Origin: Promethearchaeota archaeon
Lineage (GTDB): Archaea; Asgardarchaeota; Lokiarchaeia; Sigyniarchaeales; SOKP01
Direction: 5' to 3'
DNA length: 64,000 nt
NCBI GenBank assembly: GCA_048938855.1
Contig: JBHLLT010000003.1
Span: 64,001 to 128,000 of the forward strand
Below the pieces are notes generated by a model. That model searched no databases, was not told the DNA's origin, and saw only the letters and a program-made list of their open reading frames with translations. This document shows, one piece after another, positions 26,567-42,089 of this stretch. Made by a program: the position numbers and the translations under genes. Position 1 is the first letter of the stretch. Every line of letters starts with the position of its first letter.

Positions 26567-27841
26567 ATGGAATTTCGAAAAGGCTATAGCGCAAAAGTTG
26601 ATGATCGTTTCAGCATTCACATTGCTAATGATAGTGAAGAAGAATTAAAAGCTATAGTTAATTTAAGTATGAAGGTTCATCAAGAGGAATTATTAATAAC
26701 ATACATTCCACGCATATTTTTAGAACATCCGAGAAAAAGTGAGACTTTTTGGTTGTATATTAAGGATGATAAAGAAAACAAAATAATTTCTTTAATATGT
26801 CTATCTCCTTTAGAATGGCAAATTGAAGACAATTCATTACCAGTATGTGAAATGGAGTTTGTTGGAACTCTTCAAGAATATAGGGAAAAAGGCTTTATTA
26901 AAATTTTAAACGATCTTTATGAAAAATTAATGAACCAAAATGGCTATATTCTTTCAGTTATTAGAGGGATTCCATATTTTTATCGTAATTTAGGATATGA
27001 ATATGTTTCTTCTCTCGATGAGAGAATAAAAATTCCAGCATCTAAAATCCCTAATAAAAAATATGAAAATTTAGTTATAAGACTAGCCAATTCTAATGAT
27101 GTCCTTTCTTTTATTAAATCTAAATATGATCAATTCCAGGAAAACTTTTATATCTTTAATAGATTTGATCCAGAATGTTTTAAATTTAAATATATAAATG
27201 AAAAATTTGACTCAGAAGTTCGTTCCACATATATTTTTGATGAAGCTGGTGTCGCTAAGAATTACTTTTCTGTTGGAATGAGCTATGATAATCAAAATTA
27301 TGAGATAATTTGTTCTTTCTTAACAGAAAAAGAAATGACAAGCTTGCTTCAATTCATTAAATCTATAGGAAATTATAACGGAAATGATATCATTACTCTT
27401 AGTATTAGCGAACATTCACCACTTTTTAAATATCTCAAATCTTTAGGAGGAGAGATGGTTTCAAGTTATGGATGGCAAGTAAAAATTCCAAATTTAATAA
27501 ATTTTTTTACTCTAATAAGAAACATACTTGAAAAGAGAATAAAAGATTCTGAATTTAAGGGATTAACTAAAACTATTAGGATTAGTAATTATAATGACAC
27601 TATAGTATTGGAATTTATTAAAGGAAAAATCGAGAATATTGAGATTGAAAAAGAGTATCCAGACCCTAAAATTACTGATCTTATGATTCCAGGAACTCTT
27701 TTATTTAAACTAATATTGGGAGATAGAGCCATTGATGAAATAAATTATATCTTTAAAGATACAATAGTAAATACTTCATCAAAATTAATCATTGAAACGA
27801 TGTTTCCAAAAAAAATAAGTCTTTTCAGTTCATATATCTAA
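26567..27841 (+). CDS. GNAT acetyltransferase, Eis-like multidomain
   Basis: FVGTLQEYREKGF and GIPYFYRNLGYEY motifs, with an SCP2-like C-terminus. Confidence 0.75.
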   Translation: MEFRKGYSAKVDDRFSIHIANDSEEELKAIVNLSMKVHQEELLITYIPRIFLEHPRKSETFWLYIKDDKENKIISLICLSPLEWQIEDNSLPVCEMEFVGTLQEYREKGFIKILNDLYEKLMNQNGYILSVIRGIPYFYRNLGYEYVSSLDERIKIPASKIPNKKYENLVIRLANSNDVLSFIKSKYDQFQENFYIFNRFDPECFKFKYINEKFDSEVRSTYIFDEAGVAKNYFSVGMSYDNQNYEIICSFLTEKEMTSLLQFIKSIGNYNGNDIITLSISEHSPLFKYLKSLGGEMVSSYGWQVKIPNLINFFTLIRNILEKRIKDSEFKGLTKTIRISNYNDTIVLEFIKGKIENIEIEKEYPDPKITDLMIPGTLLFKLILGDRAIDEINYIFKDTIVNTSSKLIIETMFPKKISLFSSYI

Positions 27842-27950: not shown

Positions 27951-29090
27951 CTAGGTTTTTTCTAATTCCATTTTCGCTATCGCTTTCCCAGATCGGAATG
28001 GTATATCTTCTACTGACATTCCTGCCTCATAATTAAACTTCTTTTTGAATGCTTCGTTTAATGATTGAAAATATAACGAAAGTGGTAAATTCTGAGGACA
28101 ATTATTATCACAGTTTCCACATTCTACACATCTATCAGCATCGTGAGCTACTCTTGTTAATTGATATGTAGCTGTATCAATAGTTTTATCTTTTCTCTTT
28201 TTCATAAGAATACAATCTACACAATAGCAGACTGGGCAACCTCTTATACAGGTATTACACATAGTACATTTAAGAAGCTCTGCCATTTTTTCTTCTTGTG
28301 AGAGTTTATCCCATTCTTCCAGATCTTTTGCTCGTTTTTCTTTTGCTTTCTCAATGATTTCGTTATACTTATCTAAATGAGCTTTTTTCTCCTTATCTGG
28401 AAGTGCTTTTGTTTTAATTCCTGATTTTTTTAGAATTTCACTTCCTTTATCAGAATACACCTTTAAAATGATCTCATCTGAATCAATTGGAATAGCTAAG
28501 TCGCTTACAGTTAAATCAGCGACAACCGGAATTTTTCGATAGCATCTTAAACAATTCTCAGCAACACTAAAATTAAGTTCTTTTGTTTTTCCATCTTCCA
28601 TCTTCACAATTAGACCGTTATCCCCCACTTTTTCTTTGACAATCTTTGTAGCGTCAATATCCTTGATGGATCTCATTTCTCTTGCAGCTTTAGGAAGCAT
28701 ACCTCTATCCTCAATACCAATTACAAAAAGATTATCGAGATTTACTTGTTTTATTTTAGCAAGTTCAATTAATGCTCTTGTATCACACGGTCGTGCAATA
28801 AGACCTACTTTCTCGTGCATTGCTCCTGCTACAGATTTATGTAAATATTTTGAAGCAGAATCTGTTCTTGCATACCCAAATGCAATTAATGGGGTTAATG
28901 GAAAATCCTTTAGATCTTCCTCTTTTTCCACTAGTTGGGGTTGAACAGTAAATCTGTCTATACTTCCTGATTTCTTATCAACCCTTAATTGAGCACCTAT
29001 TATTTTATCCACTGCTTTTTCTTTTAATAAAGTCGCTAAGATTTTAGTAAAATCTTCAATCTTTATTAAATATTCTGCCATTGCTTCCAT
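27951..29090 (-). CDS. FrhB/FdhB-family (F420 hydrogenase/formate dehydrogenase beta-like) Fe-S protein
   Basis: ARPCDTRAL and NCLRC, plus C-terminal CTMCNTCIRGCPVCYC and CVECGNCDNNCP. Confidence 0.8.
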   Translation of the reverse strand: MEAMAEYLIKIEDFTKILATLLKEKAVDKIIGAQLRVDKKSGSIDRFTVQPQLVEKEEDLKDFPLTPLIAFGYARTDSASKYLHKSVAGAMHEKVGLIARPCDTRALIELAKIKQVNLDNLFVIGIEDRGMLPKAAREMRSIKDIDATKIVKEKVGDNGLIVKMEDGKTKELNFSVAENCLRCYRKIPVVADLTVSDLAIPIDSDEIILKVYSDKGSEILKKSGIKTKALPDKEKKAHLDKYNEIIEKAKEKRAKDLEEWDKLSQEEKMAELLKCTMCNTCIRGCPVCYCVDCILMKKRKDKTIDTATYQLTRVAHDADRCVECGNCDNNCPQNLPLSLYFQSLNEAFKKKFNYEAGMSVEDIPFRSGKAIAKMELEKT

Positions 29091-29196
29091 GTAATCCCAA
29101 CTCTAACTTTAGATTAACCAAATAATTTTTTTTTTATTTTTACAAATTTTATGAAAAAAATTTTCAAATTTTTATTATATTCTAACAAACTTTTTT

Positions 29197-29272
29197 AATG
29201 TGTTATATGGTGCACCCATTTCTTCAACTGAGTTCTCATTTTTTTTAACTCAGTCTCATTAGGAAACACATT
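29197..29272 (-). promoter_or_regulatory. SECIS element, eukaryote-like (lokiSECIS type), in the 3' UTR of mvhD
   Basis: The minus-strand RNA reads AUGA-GACUGAGUU-AAAAAAAAUGAG-AACUCAGUU-GAA. This gives an AUGA/GA core, a 9-bp helix, an A-rich apical loop and an outer helix AAUGUGUU/AACACAUU. The core starts ~20 nt after the mvhD stop. Confidence 0.85.
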
Positions 29273-29279
29273 GATTTAT

Positions 29280-29738
29280 TTAAGCCTCAGCTTTCGCTTG
29301 AGCTTTTCCTTTCTTAGGTGTGCCTTTTGTACGTAAGGGACTTGGTCCTAATTTACGTATTGTCTTATCGATTTCAATTGCTTCATTTTGAAATTTCTGA
29401 CCTTCGGCTGCAGTACAGTAGATCATTTTTAATCTATCCGGGCTTATCCCAATAACTTTTAGTATTTCTTTAAGATATTCAACTTGCCTATAAGCATGGT
29501 AATTACCAGTCTCATAATCGCATTCGCCAGGGTATCAAGCGTTAATTACAACTCCGTCAGCACCTCTTCCAAATGCTCGCAATACAAGGTCAGGACCTAC
29601 ACGACCAGAGCAAGGTACTAAAACATTTCTAATACTGTCTGGATATTGAGCCCGAATAGTACCTGCCATATCTGCAGAGCCGTACCCTCATTTCCAGCAA
29701 GCAAATACAATAATTTTAATATCATTATCTTCTGCCAT
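29280..29738 (-). CDS. mvhD: MvhD/VhuD [2Fe-2S] subunit; selenoprotein with 2 Sec (152 aa; not in the ORF track)
   Basis: Translates as MAEDNDIKIIVFACWK(U)GYGSADMAG...VPCSGRV...GADGVVINA(U)YPGECDYETGN...YCTAAEG...LGPSP. UGA at 29688-29690 (residue 17) and 29535-29537 (residue 68), both conserved Cys/Sec sites. Confidence 0.93.
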
Positions 29739-29750
29739 TTTCTTCCCTCT

Positions 29751-31727
29751 CTATTCCTCTATTGGTAATAATTCATCTACTAAAGCCATATATTGTTGAT
29801 CTCTAAAGTAAGTTAATTCTATTGCTTTTGATGGACATAATGATGCACAAGTGCCACATCCCCGACAATTTATTAAATCGACGACAATGTTTCCAGTTTC
29901 ATTTATCGAAATAGCTGTATAAGGACACGCTTCAATACATTTATAACATTTCGCACAACGTTCATCTGATGGTGTAGCTCGAATTAATTCCATAGTATAT
30001 TCTCCTTTTCCCATCGGAATGCCTGCAACTGATGCTGCTCCTCTTGCTTGACTCACAGCTTTGTCTATCTCTTTTTGCCCTTGAGCAGAACCACAAATGT
30101 AGATTCCTGGAACTTTAGTGCTAATAGGATCAAGTCTGGCATGGTATTCTTTTAAGAAACCATCAGGACTTTTTTCCATATTTAGTACTTTAGCAATTTC
30201 TATAGTACCTTGAGATGGTAGAGACGCTGGGGATAATACTACCATATGAAATTCCATAGTAACTACACTGTCAGTTCCAACCGGTTCAAATTGTACTATA
30301 AGATTTTTTGTAAGTGGATCTTCTTCAATTTTTCCTACTAAACCCTTAACAAATATAATTCCGGCATTTCGAGATCTTCTATAATATTCTTCATAATCTT
30401 TCCCTGCGCATCTCATATCTATATAACAACAAACTATCTGCGAATCTGGGTACTCTGATTTTATTAATTTTGAGTTTTTGAGAGACAGATTGCAACAAAT
30501 TACACTACAATGTGCATTTTTGTTGACATCTCTAGATCCTACGCAATTGATGAATAGAACTTTTGTAGGACGTTTTCCATCTGATGGACGCTTTAAATGT
30601 CCATATGTGGGGCCATTTGGAGCAAGTATCCTCTCTAGCTGTATTTGATTAATAACGTTATCGTAAATACCGTAACCATAATCATCTCCTTGGTAAAGAT
30701 CCCAACCAGTCGCAACTATTATTGTACCAACCTTGAGCTCCACAATTTCATCCTGCTGACTAAAATCTATAGCTTGTTGTTCACAAGCATCAACGCAAGC
30801 GAAACATTCAATGCAAGCTTCTCTATTAAGCTGTGATATTGCTGGAACTGCCTGTGCAAAAGCAATATCGATAACCTTTCTTGCGGAGAGATTTTCATCA
30901 AAGTAATTGCTAATATAGACGGGGCATACATCTGTACATGTCCCACAACCTGTACATTTGTCTTCAAGAACAAATCGAGCTTTCCTTCTAACTTTGACAT
31001 CAAAATTGCCAATGTAACCATCGATTTCAGAAACTTCACTGAAAGATAAGATTTCTATATTTGGATGACGATTAGCTTCAAGCATTTTTGGTCCCAAGAT
31101 TCATATGCTGCAATCATCTGTAGGGAACGTTCTATCGAGTTGTGACATTCGTCCTCCAATAGTGGTATTCTTTTCAACTAAATAGACTTTATATCCAGCA
31201 TCTCCTAAATCAATAGCTGCTGATAATCCGGCAATCCCTCCACCTACTACGAGAGCAGATGGTTCTACTGGCACAGTTTTAGTTGGTACATCTTCCAATA
31301 ATTTAGCTCGAGCAATGCCTGCTTTAATTAATTCAATTGCTTTTAAGGTAGCTTTTTCCCGCACTTCCGGAGCCTGATGAACGAATGAACAATGCTCTCG
31401 AATGTTTACAAATTCTAAATATCTTGGAGGCAAACCCATCTCAGTTAATATGGCATGAAAAACTGGTTGATGAGTTTTTGGAGTACATGCCGCAACTAAA
31501 ACCCTATTAAAGTTGACTTCTTCATGTTTTTCCTTGATTTCAGTAGATCCACCTTCAGTACATAGAGACAAATATGGGTAAGCCCAAACATTATCTAATT
31601 TATTTATTTCCTCGACAATCTTTGGAATATCTAAGATTCCTGCAATGTTGATACCTCAGTGACACACAAACACACCTATTCTAGGTTTTTCTTCGTTTTC
31701 ATTTTCGTTGGTCTGCTTTTCAGACAC
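29751..31727 (-). CDS. hdrA: Heterodisulfide reductase subunit A; selenoprotein with 2 Sec (658 aa)
   Basis: One frame from GTG 31727 (GGTGG SD). RIGVFVCH(U)GINIAG has UGA at 31656-31658. GGGIAG FAD motif. LDRTFPTDDCSI(U)ILGPKM has UGA at 31101-31103. Also ferredoxin motifs and CVGSRD. This joins track ORFs 31101-31571 and 29751-31097. Confidence 0.93.
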
Positions 31728-31895
31728 TTTAACCACCTTAAGTTAAACCTAACCTCCTAATTTTTATATGGTATCTTCTCTCTTAGTTTCTTAGAGTAAA
31801 TACAAGAATTTAATTTATGATATTGTAAATAGTTTATATTATTAAAATTCAATTGTTATAACAAGTAACTTCTCTTTTGGTATTTCTTAGTGAGT

Positions 31896-32372
31896 TTATA
31901 ATTTTAATATCATTTCTTTATCACCATCGTTTTCTCTAAAACCATATTTCTCGTATAAAGGTCTGCCAGAGGGAGTTGCATGTAGCATCACTGAATGAAT
32001 CCCCTCTTTTTTAATCTCTTCAAATAAGTTGTTGAGTAGCGCTGAACCAATACCTTTTCTCCGCCATTTAGGATTAGTATACATATTCATAATATAAGCA
32101 AACTTACCAGTCATATTTATGAAATGAGGTGGCTTTTGCAGGAAGGATAAACCACTAGTAGCAATTATTTCATTATTAGATTCTGCTAACCAAGCGATAA
32201 ATTCGTTAGATTTCATCTTATCAAGAAAAAATTGCCCTAATATTTCTCGGAAAATTTCCATATCTTTAACGGAGGGAATTTCTTGGATTTCTGATAAAAA
32301 CTTAATGCGGAAATCAATTAAATTGTCTATATCATCAAGATTAGCTTTTCTTAGGGAGTACATAAATATCAA
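31896..32372 (-). CDS. GNAT N-acetyltransferase
   Basis: NMYTNPKWRRKGIG and GRPLYEKYGF motifs. Confidence 0.9.
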   Translation of the reverse strand: MIFMYSLRKANLDDIDNLIDFRIKFLSEIQEIPSVKDMEIFREILGQFFLDKMKSNEFIAWLAESNNEIIATSGLSFLQKPPHFINMTGKFAYIMNMYTNPKWRRKGIGSALLNNLFEEIKKEGIHSVMLHATPSGRPLYEKYGFRENDGDKEMILKL

Positions 32373-39326: not shown

Positions 39327-42089
39327 TTATATTAAGAATAGTACTTTTCCTAGAAAGCTTACTATATCAATGACTTTAATTTTATTTTTTAATTCTCTAT
39401 TTTCATTGAGATAACAATTCAAATGAGTAATACATTTAGGACATGCCGTAATTAGATATTCTGCTCCGGTCTCAATTGCTTGCAATATCTTTTTCTCTTG
39501 GAACTTTTTTGAATCTTGATTACAAGAAATATAAGCAGAAACACCACAACAATCAGCATCTTCCTTAGAGTCCTCCATTTCTATTAACTCTATAGATGGT
39601 ACGAGATTTAAAACATCACGAGGGGCATCAAAAACATTACTAAATCGCCCTAGTCTACATGGGTCGTGATAGGTCACTTTAATTTTATCCATTACGGGAT
39701 ATGTTATGTTTTCTAATAATTTTTCTTTGAGAATATATTCAGTTATGTGGTAAAACTCAAAATCAAAATCATGATTACCTTTAAATAATTTTTTATATTC
39801 GTTTTTCCAAGTATAATAACCCTCAGCGCAGTTAAAGATAATTGTCTTGACACCTGCATCTTTAAATAATTTGAAATTATATTCTGCTAATTTTTTAAAC
39901 GTATCAGTATCTCCTTGCCAAAGAGCATCATGTCCACAGCACTTTTCTTGAGGTAGAACAACTGGAGTTATATCATTTCGATTTAATAAACCAATAACAC
40001 TTTTAGGAATATGATAATAATTAGATGCATTTATTGAAGGCCAAATATCTTGGCTTCCATAATCACAGTTCATAATACCTGATGAGTCCAGAGCTTTCTC
40101 AAAATCTTCTGGCATTTGATCGGAATTACAACAGCAATTACAGTTTAAACATCGGTTAGCTTCTTTTTTAGCTTGTTCTTCAGTAAAACCTAATTCCATT
40201 TCATCAAAACAGACTAATCTCTCAGAGCTAGGCATAAAGTTCATATCTTGACATACTTGTGTTTGAATATACTTTTTTGGTATGGTAGACCGCTTAAGGT
40301 CATTCTTTCTTATTCTTCCTTCCTTTAAGTCAAAACCTCGGAGATATCTATCAATTGAGTAAGCTGCTTCTCTTCCATCTCCAACAGCATCGACTGCGCA
40401 CATTAACGAATTATTAATAATATCTCCTCCAGCAAAGACTCCAGGAATACCAGTTTCATAAGTTAGATTATCAACTATAACTTTACCTCGATCTATTTTT
40501 AATTTATTATCTGTAGCAGTAAGAAGAGGTTCATCATTGAGACCTTGACCAATAGCTATTACAATATGATCAACAATAATTTTGAATTCTGAATCTTCAA
40601 TTTTACTTAAGGGTCGTCTACCAGTTTCTGGATCTGGATCTCCCCATTTAATTTTATAACAATTTAACGCTAATTTACCATTAGGTTCTTGAGTGATGTT
40701 TACTGTTGATGTTTCAAAATGATATTCCATAACTTCTCTTTCAGCTTCATGTAAGTCATCCAATACTTTTTTTAGAGCTTCTTCAGTTAAAATATCGACA
40801 AGGTCAACTTTAGTAGCTCCCAAGCGAAGAACCGTCTCACCAACATCAACTGCTACAGCACCTCCACCTATAATGCCAAAAGTCTTACCTTTAAACTCTT
40901 CGGGGTTCTCACTACATTTATACTTCCGTTCTAAAAGAAAATCTATTGCCACATCGACATTGGGTAAATCTTCTCCTTCGAGTCTAAGAGTTTTGGGAAC
41001 ATATAATCCTACAGCAATAAAAATTGCTTTAAACCCTTGCTCCCAAAGATCTTCAATTGTGAAATTTGGACCAAATTCTTTATTTAAAACCATTTCTACA
41101 CCCATACTTTTTATAAATTCTATATCTTGGTCAAGTGCCTCATCAGAAAGTCTATATTGTGGAACACCGTATCTAACGACACCTCCAATTTTATCTCCTT
41201 TTTCAAAAATCGTTGGTTTATATCCCATTCTTGCGAGAAAATATGCTGCAGATAAACCACCTGGTCCAGCACCAATCACAGCTACTTTTTCCTTTGTCTG
41301 AGGCACTGGTTTTATTTTAGTTTGGTTTGGATGTTCAACCTCCCAGTCACAGACAAATCTTTTTAATTCACGTATAGCTATTGGAGCATCAAAATGTTGA
41401 CGGTTACAATTTAATGCACATTGAGCAGTGCAAATCCGCCCACATAAGTATGGTAACGGATTTGTTTCTCTTATCAGATCTAAAGCCTCTTGATATTTCC
41501 CCTCAGCTATAAGAGATACATAACCTTGAACGTCAACTCCCGCAGGGCATCCAACAACACATGGTGCAGAACCTGTTAAAAAGGGAACACATCCCATAAA
41601 ATATGCAATTTCTCCCTTATCAGTTGTTTTTAATCCTGATCCATCGAGGAATCCTATTTTATTAGTAAATTTTATTTTATCCTCAGCCATTAATTTTGGT
41701 AGACTTGAGTATACCCTTTCGTGATTACAGCTTAATAATCCTTCTTGTAATGGCTTATATTCTGAAACAAGAGAGCGAAGATCTTTAATGATTTGAGTAA
41801 AATTTACACCAGTGTCTTCCTTAGTCATAGGACAATAAATTGAGCATAATCCACAGGTTAAGCACTTCCAAATATCATTATTTTGTAAAGCTTCTTCTGG
41901 TGTTAGGAATGTCAAATCTGTAATTAAGCTACGAGGGTAAAAAATGCCGATAAAGGCAGTTGGACATACATTATTGCAACGATTACAGTTATAACAATAA
42001 TTAGCAGCAGAATTTACTTTTTTAAGCAATTCTATTGAATTAACACTAGTAATTTTTTCACTAGTTGCTTTATCGTTAGATTCAGTCAT
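39327..42089 (-). CDS. Fusion protein: HdrD-like (4Fe-4S + CCG domains) with an inserted GltD/NfnB-like FAD/NAD(P) oxidoreductase
   Basis: In order: CYNCNRCNNVCP, CLTCGLCSIYCP, YFMGC, then APCVVGCP, CGRIC, GAGPGG, GGGAVA, FAGGD, EANRCLNC, then EKCCG, YHDPC, CCG, ACPKC. Confidence 0.85.
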   Translation of the reverse strand: MTESNDKATSEKITSVNSIELLKKVNSAANYCYNCNRCNNVCPTAFIGIFYPRSLITDLTFLTPEEALQNNDIWKCLTCGLCSIYCPMTKEDTGVNFTQIIKDLRSLVSEYKPLQEGLLSCNHERVYSSLPKLMAEDKIKFTNKIGFLDGSGLKTTDKGEIAYFMGCVPFLTGSAPCVVGCPAGVDVQGYVSLIAEGKYQEALDLIRETNPLPYLCGRICTAQCALNCNRQHFDAPIAIRELKRFVCDWEVEHPNQTKIKPVPQTKEKVAVIGAGPGGLSAAYFLARMGYKPTIFEKGDKIGGVVRYGVPQYRLSDEALDQDIEFIKSMGVEMVLNKEFGPNFTIEDLWEQGFKAIFIAVGLYVPKTLRLEGEDLPNVDVAIDFLLERKYKCSENPEEFKGKTFGIIGGGAVAVDVGETVLRLGATKVDLVDILTEEALKKVLDDLHEAEREVMEYHFETSTVNITQEPNGKLALNCYKIKWGDPDPETGRRPLSKIEDSEFKIIVDHIVIAIGQGLNDEPLLTATDNKLKIDRGKVIVDNLTYETGIPGVFAGGDIINNSLMCAVDAVGDGREAAYSIDRYLRGFDLKEGRIRKNDLKRSTIPKKYIQTQVCQDMNFMPSSERLVCFDEMELGFTEEQAKKEANRCLNCNCCCNSDQMPEDFEKALDSSGIMNCDYGSQDIWPSINASNYYHIPKSVIGLLNRNDITPVVLPQEKCCGHDALWQGDTDTFKKLAEYNFKLFKDAGVKTIIFNCAEGYYTWKNEYKKLFKGNHDFDFEFYHITEYILKEKLLENITYPVMDKIKVTYHDPCRLGRFSNVFDAPRDVLNLVPSIELIEMEDSKEDADCCGVSAYISCNQDSKKFQEKKILQAIETGAEYLITACPKCITHLNCYLNENRELKNKIKVIDIVSFLGKVLFLI

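Follow-up and report, generated by a model that had tools for sequence, protein, structure and literature searches.

On the minus strand of a 64,000-nucleotide stretch of DNA from a Promethearchaeota archaeon (GenBank assembly GCA_048938855.1, contig JBHLLT010000003.1, positions 64,001 to 128,000; hereafter the window), the genes hdrA and mvhD lie in tandem at 29197–31727 and contain two in-frame UGA codons each. We put at roughly 93% the probability that they form a bicistronic unit in which all four UGAs are read as selenocysteine (Sec; U in protein sequences), directed by one selenocysteine insertion sequence (SECIS) of the type described for Lokiarchaeota (lokiSECIS), which follows mvhD. 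This reading is carried by the reading frames, the alignment of the UGA sites with cysteine (Cys) positions, the conservation of the UGAs, the conservation and covariation of the SECIS, the Sec machinery of the genome, and the synteny of the locus. The lokiSECIS, situated in the 3′ untranslated region (UTR), would act on UGAs located 0.28–2.4 kb upstream in the same mRNA, and decoding would be accomplished by EFSec with Sec-tRNASec and a putative adaptor. The products would be an electron-bifurcating HdrA and its [2Fe-2S] electron-entry partner MvhD.

Reading Frames and In-Frame UGA Codons

The two genes and their UGA codons are as follows.

29751–31727, minus strand: hdrA, 658 codons, GTG start, TAG stop, with U24 and U209
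31656–31658, minus strand: UGA codon 24 of hdrA in the motif VCH-U-G of the N-terminal Fe-S domain, with the SECIS AUGA 2399 nt downstream
31101–31103, minus strand: UGA codon 209 of hdrA in the motif DCSI-U-IL, at the canonical Sec position of HdrA (Cys197/Sec197), with the SECIS AUGA 1844 nt downstream
29280–29738, minus strand: mvhD/vhuD (FlpD family), 152 codons, ATG start, TAA stop, with U17 and U68
29688–29690, minus strand: UGA codon 17 of mvhD, C-W-K-U (motif CWK-U-GY), with the SECIS AUGA 431 nt downstream
29535–29537, minus strand: UGA codon 68 of mvhD in the motif A-U-YPGEC, with the SECIS AUGA 278 nt downstream

The source genome is a metagenome-assembled genome (MAG) of 3.95 Mb in 93 contigs with a G+C content of 30%. 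A scan of species-representative genomes provided 80 orthologous loci from independently assembled MAGs of Promethearchaeota (Lokiarchaeota) and other Asgard-labelled MAGs. Counts for single sites take in only the loci covering that site, and counts of stop codons, SECIS elements, and synteny refer to 78 loci.

The GTG start codon of hdrA is preceded by a ribosome-binding site (AAGGUGG), and 12 nt separate the hdrA stop codon from the ATG of mvhD. With TGA read as U, both frames are free of stops and frameshifts apart from their two TGAs. The deduced HdrA matches HdrA of Methanococcus maripaludis (9sfi_A; 688 bits, residues 14–654 on 3–650 of 9sfi_A) and aligns end to end with 5odc_A (651 bits). 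Its domain architecture is complete, consisting of an N-terminal Fe-S domain, a TrxR-like flavin adenine dinucleotide (FAD) domain, and two ferredoxin domains, and Pfam recognizes Fer4 and FAD/NAD-binding Rossmann domains. MvhD contains the complete FlpD/MvhD domain (PF02662, 2e-42, model positions 1–123 of 123), scores 127 bits against the solved MvhD chain 9sw2_D, and also aligns with MvhD of the Hdr-Mvh and Hdr-Fdh complexes.

All four UGA sites correspond to Cys in solved chains of HdrA and MvhD, and the four motifs listed above, which had been quoted in a preliminary description of the stretch, are exact in the translation. Codon 24 of hdrA corresponds to Cys in 9sfi_A and 5odc_A; codon 209 corresponds to Cys in 5odc_A and to an X, modelled as Sec197, in 9sfi_A. 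Codon 17 of mvhD takes the place of the Cys in the NWC(S/T)YG motif of three solved MvhD chains and codon 68 that of the Cys in the GCHxGDC motif, and the Cys and Sec positions of the conserved MvhD Cys set align with these three chains.

ORF calling (open reading frames, translation table 11) on the minus strand of 29197–31727 cuts hdrA into 31101–31571 (156 aa) and 29751–31097 (448 aa) and reduces mvhD to two fragments of 44 and 48 aa. The observation in the preliminary description that hdrA is split and mvhD missing among the predicted ORFs, with UGA as the sole interruption, is thus confirmed by reading TGA as U. That standard ORF calling yields fragments only would also fit two pseudogenes, with the four TGAs as sequencing or assembly errors or inactivating mutations. 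However, TGA occurs at every covered site of the relatives: at hdrA codon 24 in 77/77 orthologs, at codon 209 in 80/80, and at mvhD codons 17 and 68 in 78/78 each. The recurrence of the same TGAs in 80 other, independently assembled genomes excludes chance and shows that they are not read errors. Moreover, the protein is conserved on both sides of each TGA (61–96% HdrA identity across the 80 loci over residues 1–658), with no other stop or frameshift. Sequencing error and pseudogenization were consequently rejected, and we grant them virtually no chance.

The SECIS Element behind mvhD

The preliminary description had placed a hairpin with AUGA, helix, AA-loop, and GA after mvhD. It is present at this place, and its outer helix closes at 29197–29272. 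The complete element comprises the following parts, all on the minus strand.

29197–29272, minus strand: complete SECIS, with outer helix P1, C-stem, AUGA, stem P2, loop, GA, and side hairpin P3
29265–29272 with 29197–29204, minus strand: outer helix P1
C-stem, minus strand: 2 bp, CU/AG
29256–29259, minus strand: AUGA, 20 nt after the mvhD TAA stop
29247–29255 with 29226–29234, minus strand: main stem P2, 9 bp
29235–29246, minus strand: apical loop AAAAAAAAUGAG, 12 nt, A-rich, AG at its end
29224–29225, minus strand: GA
29207–29219, minus strand: side hairpin P3, AUGG-GUGCA-CCAU

A strict pattern search allowing at most one stem mismatch found the SECIS 12–21 nt past the mvhD stop codon in 65 related loci; it overlooked the element in 11 loci and returned two distant false matches. 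The covariance model R1 recovered the SECIS at the expected place in 12 of these 13 failures, which brings the total to 77/78 loci. The only negative is a Helarchaeota locus (L101), where R1 gave no match. In an alignment of 66 sequences, eight of the nine P2 pairs show changes on both sides, and none of 500 shuffles reached the observed covariation. About 95–96% of the P2 cells are paired, vs. 23–49% with slid partners, the former fraction being inflated because the 65 sequences were chosen for at most one stem mismatch. The AUGA and the final G of the loop are invariant in all 66 elements, and the A before this G and the first position (G) of the GA after the stem are conserved in at least 90%, one locus having AA. 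The apical loop measures 11–13 nt among the orthologs, usually 11.

R1 assigns 76 bits to the window SECIS, which is itself among the 66 sequences used to build the model, and finds nothing else above 17 bits in the window. In the genome, where 150 of about 10,670 candidates were scored, this model, which is tuned to the present ortholog group, returned the window SECIS only; the other SECIS elements of the genome were located by a pattern scan of the genome sequence.

hdrA might instead possess a signal of its own in its coding region or 5′ UTR, in which case the element behind mvhD would serve mvhD only. A reach of 2.4 kb over a cistron boundary is unusual, and methanogen hdrA and vhuD are reported with their own elements (PMC4989117; PMC11227280). 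However, a 12-nt spacer is too short to hold a separate hdrA SECIS, and R1 detected no second match above 17 bits in the window, a differently shaped element in the coding region not having been searched for. Furthermore, hdrA ends in TAA in 47 and in TAG in 31 of the 78 loci and never in TGA, whereas the stop codon of mvhD, proximal to the SECIS, is TGA in 9/78. This pattern, which had been predicted for such tandems (PMC4989117), is expected if the downstream SECIS recodes the UGAs of hdrA, and we consider a separate hdrA signal highly improbable.

Selenocysteine Machinery

The preliminary description had proposed to look for the Sec machinery in the genome, and tRNA-Sec, SepSecS, PSTK, EFSec, and selD were all found. 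The tRNA-Sec gene (61 bits, anticodon TCA) is located directly upstream of the SepSecS gene (464 bits) on contig 49, and the EFSec gene lies 5 kb from this pair. The best solved relative of EFSec is SelB of M. maripaludis (293 bits), followed by human eEFSec, and that of the PSTK homolog is PSTK of Methanocaldococcus jannaschii (93 bits). selD is present as two tandem paralogs with one in-frame TGA each (G000:C34:253707-255755; loci L008 and L009). The SECIS elements found behind each of them are type II-like, with a 7-bp stem, a 20-nt apical region, a closing helix, and a side hairpin. The same genome encodes four further Sec-type hdrA and three further Sec-type mvhD genes as well as other SECIS-linked genes with in-frame UGA.

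These data also bear on a genome-wide reassignment of UGA to tryptophan, glycine, or Cys, which would need no SECIS and under which the two frames are likewise open, with TGA as a sense codon. TGA remains an ordinary stop codon, however: of the 1634 genomic open frames with 300 codons or more it terminates 215, and of the 37 window frames with 200 codons or more, 6. In-frame TGAs occur only at Cys-equivalent sites of SECIS-linked genes, and the genome encodes a dedicated tRNA-Sec along with the complete Sec pathway. Reassignment was rejected on the continued use of TGA as a stop, and its probability appears to be next to nil.

Insertion of Cys at Sec codons has been reported from other systems. 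The UGAs could be recoded for the most part with Cys, or by way of near-cognate read-through, for instance when selenium is scarce, so that the proteins would mostly be Cys forms; all four sites are Cys in homologs without Sec. Against this, TGA has been kept over TGC or TGT in 80 genomes, which suggests that Sec itself is under selection. Cys-type mvhD paralogs are kept as separate genes in the genome, and none of the computed results supports Cys insertion, which leaves this alternative a very slim chance.

Several points weigh against Sec recoding by a shared lokiSECIS. The PSTK homolog reaches 133 bits with the NCBIfam model, under its cut-off of 290. The apical loop is 12 nt long instead of the published 11, and no SECIS family of Rfam matches the element. 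The 65 SECIS sequences were pre-selected for their stem, a bias that the recovery of 12 more loci by R1 and the slid-partner controls offset only in part. Finally, co-transcription, Sec insertion, the route of SECIS recognition, and the cluster contacts are what we infer.

Relation to Known Selenoprotein Loci

In Lokiarchaeota, HdrA and VhuD are described as always encoded in tandem with a very short spacer, and VhuD as containing two Sec (Mariotti et al., 2016; PMC4989117). According to the same paper, a single lokiSECIS occurs only after VhuD and serves up to six UGAs over ~2 kb, and HdrA is never terminated by UGA. There, the lokiSECIS itself is defined by an AUGA followed by a stem of 9 bp, a loop of 11 nt that opens with about five adenines and closes with an ultraconserved G after A, and a GA. 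A later Asgard-wide survey, which extends this description, reports 1439 selenoprotein genes in 227 genomes (Huang et al., 2024; PMC11227280).

The window locus agrees with the tandem of Lokiarchaeota in gene order, short spacer, two Sec in VhuD/MvhD, a single SECIS after the second gene, an HdrA with several Sec, one of them at the canonical site near residue 200, and an hdrA stop that is never UGA. Nothing essential is different, the loop being 1 nt longer. Since the locus shares every defining trait of these tandems except this one nucleotide, it is a member of an already described class, and the hdrA–mvhD selenoprotein pair with a shared SECIS is known from the 2016 description and the 2024 catalog. 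The earlier suggestion of an intact Sec-recoded unit that pipelines mis-annotate is supported, since each refuting condition named with it was decided in its favor, with the provisos that the unit is hidden from ORF callers only and that its type has been published.

HdrA and VhuD of Methanococcales and Methanopyrus are orthologous to the proteins described here and share Sec197 of HdrA and, as reported, both Sec sites of VhuD. Their SECIS, with a GAA_A bulge and a GC-rich stem, is unlike the window element, their HdrA contains one Sec compared with two in the window HdrA, and their genes are located with the vhu hydrogenase genes.

The eukaryotic SECIS (Rfam SECIS_1), a kink-turn element bound by SBP2, is likewise a 3′ UTR structure that serves several UGAs from a distance, and it shares with the window element the AUGA…GA core of tandem sheared pairs and the unpaired adenines that open the apical loop. 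In contrast, its upper stem is longer, and the window element carries a conserved hairpin in the 3′ side of the internal loop, which results in a three-way junction. The published searches found no SBP2 in Asgard archaea (PMC4989117; PMC11227280). An Rfam cmscan of 28900–32000 at E ≤ 10 returned no SECIS family but only chance matches (RAGATH-33, Corona_FSE, and others). Eukaryotic SECIS models (SECISearch3 or covariance models) also fail on Asgard elements according to the same studies (PMC4989117; PMC11227280). Of the term "eukaryote-type SECIS" used in the preliminary description, what holds is the AUGA/GA core and the A-rich loop common to both kinds of element; the Rfam result, the 9-bp stem, and a three-way junction do not agree with it.

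A Three-Way Junction in the SECIS

Outer helix P1 (AUGUGUU with AACACAU) and side hairpin P3 (AUGG-N5-CCAU) are near-invariant and pairable in more than 93% of the cells of a 78-sequence alignment, and they lack covariation because the sequences vary too little. Support for these two arms is provided by 13 SECIS elements behind different selenoprotein genes of the genome, whose sequences are unrelated. They are located on contigs C20, C34, C49, C62, C64, C66, C70, C74, and C77 (loci L117–L124); in the window, the element is at 29197–29272. With only the main stem constrained, 10 of the 13 adopt a three-way shape consisting of closing helix, kink-turn, main stem, and one 3′ side hairpin, compared with ~15% of flank-shuffled controls (P about 8e-7). 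By eye, a side hairpin is visible in each of the remaining three, together with closing-helix sequences in two (C70_b and selD2). The 3′ side hairpin is short and GC-rich, with a G-pyrimidine step in every loop. The 2-bp canonical stem adjoining the AUGA/GA pairs, in which C-G is invariant and the second pair is U-A or U-G, fits a standard kink-turn.

In the available text of PMC4989117 and PMC11227280 a "lower stem" and an "internal loop" are named, the side hairpin and the closing helix are not; the three-armed shape is the sole part of the present findings that goes beyond this text. The Loki SECIS may be a kink-turn within a three-way junction, a k-junction-like fold of which P1 and P3 are functional parts. 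P1 and P3 could be the docking site of an archaeal SECIS-binding factor and, if the k-junction reading is true, the eukaryotic internal loop would be a remnant left after loss of the side arm.

Selenocysteine and the Iron-Sulfur Clusters

The preliminary description had assigned all four UGAs to metal-ligand Cys positions. All four do align with Cys, but literature on ligand function exists only for U209, and for the other three sites this role is deduced. In a crystal structure, the ligand set of the N-terminal [4Fe-4S] cluster in HdrA is made complete by Cys197 from the partner HdrA (PMC9012536), an arrangement that supports a metal ligand at U209. However, in a 2026 structure of M. maripaludis determined by cryo-electron microscopy, Sec197 was modelled in a Cys-Sec bridge between the N-terminal cluster and FAD (PMC13518236), so that the two studies disagree on Cys/Sec197.

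In all five Sec-type HdrA paralogs of the genome, positions 24 and 209 are both U, and the paralog on contig 20 (L123, 475–2454, plus strand) contains four Sec at the equivalents of 24, 56, 81, and 209. Positions 24, 56, and 81 are conserved Cys of the N-terminal domain, and 209 is the equivalent of Cys197. As far as can be judged from these alignments, this suggests that replacement by Sec is focused on the ligand set of the N-terminal cluster, in the low-potential branch toward ferredoxin. Positions 24, 56, 81, and 209 may even be exactly the four ligands of this [4Fe-4S] cluster, which, if true, would mean clusters with partly to fully selenolate ligation. The k-junction fold of the SECIS and the four positions as ligands of one cluster are independent possibilities, and the two together we advance tentatively, at rather less than even odds. 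In MvhD, U17 and U68 are both part of the set of conserved Cys residues in the [2Fe-2S] domain.

Genomic Neighborhood and Predicted Function

Two features downstream of the SECIS complete the locus.

29154–29160, minus strand: run of seven U, 37 nt after the SECIS
27951–29090, minus strand: gene of an FdhB/FrhB-like flavo-iron-sulfur subunit, 379 aa, no UGA, Pfam FrhB_FdhB_C

The FdhB-like protein scores 134 bits against FdhB of an Hdr-Fdh complex (9t1s_M), and its gene follows mvhD on the same strand in 76/78 loci, separated from it by a median of 193 nt. Judged by its composition, the U run may be an archaeal transcription terminator ahead of the following gene. Because this run and an A/T-rich stretch precede it, the fdhB-like gene may have a promoter of its own. 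The flanks of the hdrA–mvhD–fdhB-like unit are seldom kept (2/80 and 12/80 loci), which indicates that the unit moves as a block. In the window, the three genes are flanked by genes for GNAT acetyltransferases at 26567–27841 (plus strand) and 31896–32372 (minus strand).

No hdrBC, fdhA, or hydrogenase genes adjoin the locus; [NiFe] hydrogenase genes are located on contigs 42 and 77. Approximately 20 genes with CCG domains are scattered over the genome, one of them in the window at 39420–40022. This HdrB/HdrD-like region on the minus strand is part of a 931-aa open frame ~8 kb from hdrA. No other Hdr-type thiol/disulfide module exists in the window, and the region is a possible partner of HdrA.

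HdrA, MvhD, and an FdhB-like subunit are also encoded together for the Hdr-Fdh complexes (FdhAB-MvhD-HdrABC; 7bkb, 8rvu, 9t1s), but the window locus differs in having no adjoining fdhA, hdrB, or hdrC. HdrA and MvhD probably have the FdhB-like subunit as their partner, and not a neighboring hydrogenase or HdrBC. By analogy, the most likely role is that of a flavin-based electron-bifurcating or confurcating module, in which the FdhB-like subunit would feed or drain electrons via the MvhD cluster to the flavin of HdrA, as in the solved Fdh-MvhD-Hdr complexes.

Further Selenoprotein Genes of the Genome

Contig 70 encodes a group of tiny predicted membrane proteins (locus L120, G000:C70:123250-125400, minus strand; ORFs 135–341, 1066–1290, 1345–1554, and 1763–1996), of which a further member is found at locus L119 (96–308, minus strand). 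The proteins, 68–77 aa long, contain one in-frame UGA each in motifs such as A-U-G or G-U-G, and three have a lokiSECIS of their own. They match no meaningful Pfam family and turned up in only 2 of the 24 same-genus genomes searched; a search of 40 relatives for the contig 70 protein likewise gave only 2. As a candidate selenoprotein family, these proteins would be an addition to the list published for archaea.

A protein of 158 aa encoded on contig 49 (L118, 104–580, plus strand; G000:C49:284803-285279) has two adjacent in-frame UGAs in the motif H-A-D-U-U-A-D, and a lokiSECIS begins 8 nt later. It matches nothing in Pfam and could represent a selenoprotein not yet described, one in which the two Sec form a vicinal diselenide. 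On contig 34 (L117, 80–616, minus strand), a peroxiredoxin-like (AhpC/TSA) selenoprotein carries the redox motif W-U-S-H-C, and the UGA stop codon of its gene doubles as the UGA within the SECIS AUGA, a configuration already reported in certain Loki genes.

Implications

In genomes such as this one, gene callers split hdrA and lose mvhD, which leads to distorted metabolic reconstructions. The SECIS of Asgard archaea is a proposed link between archaeal and eukaryotic Sec decoding, and we know of no parallel elsewhere for a single SECIS serving two cistrons with up to six UGAs across ~2 kb. The window adds one clean, fully syntenic example with independent statistics from 80 genomes rather than a new phenomenon. 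What remains of interest for these archaea is the three-armed architecture of their SECIS and the apparent clustering of Sec on one Fe-S site.

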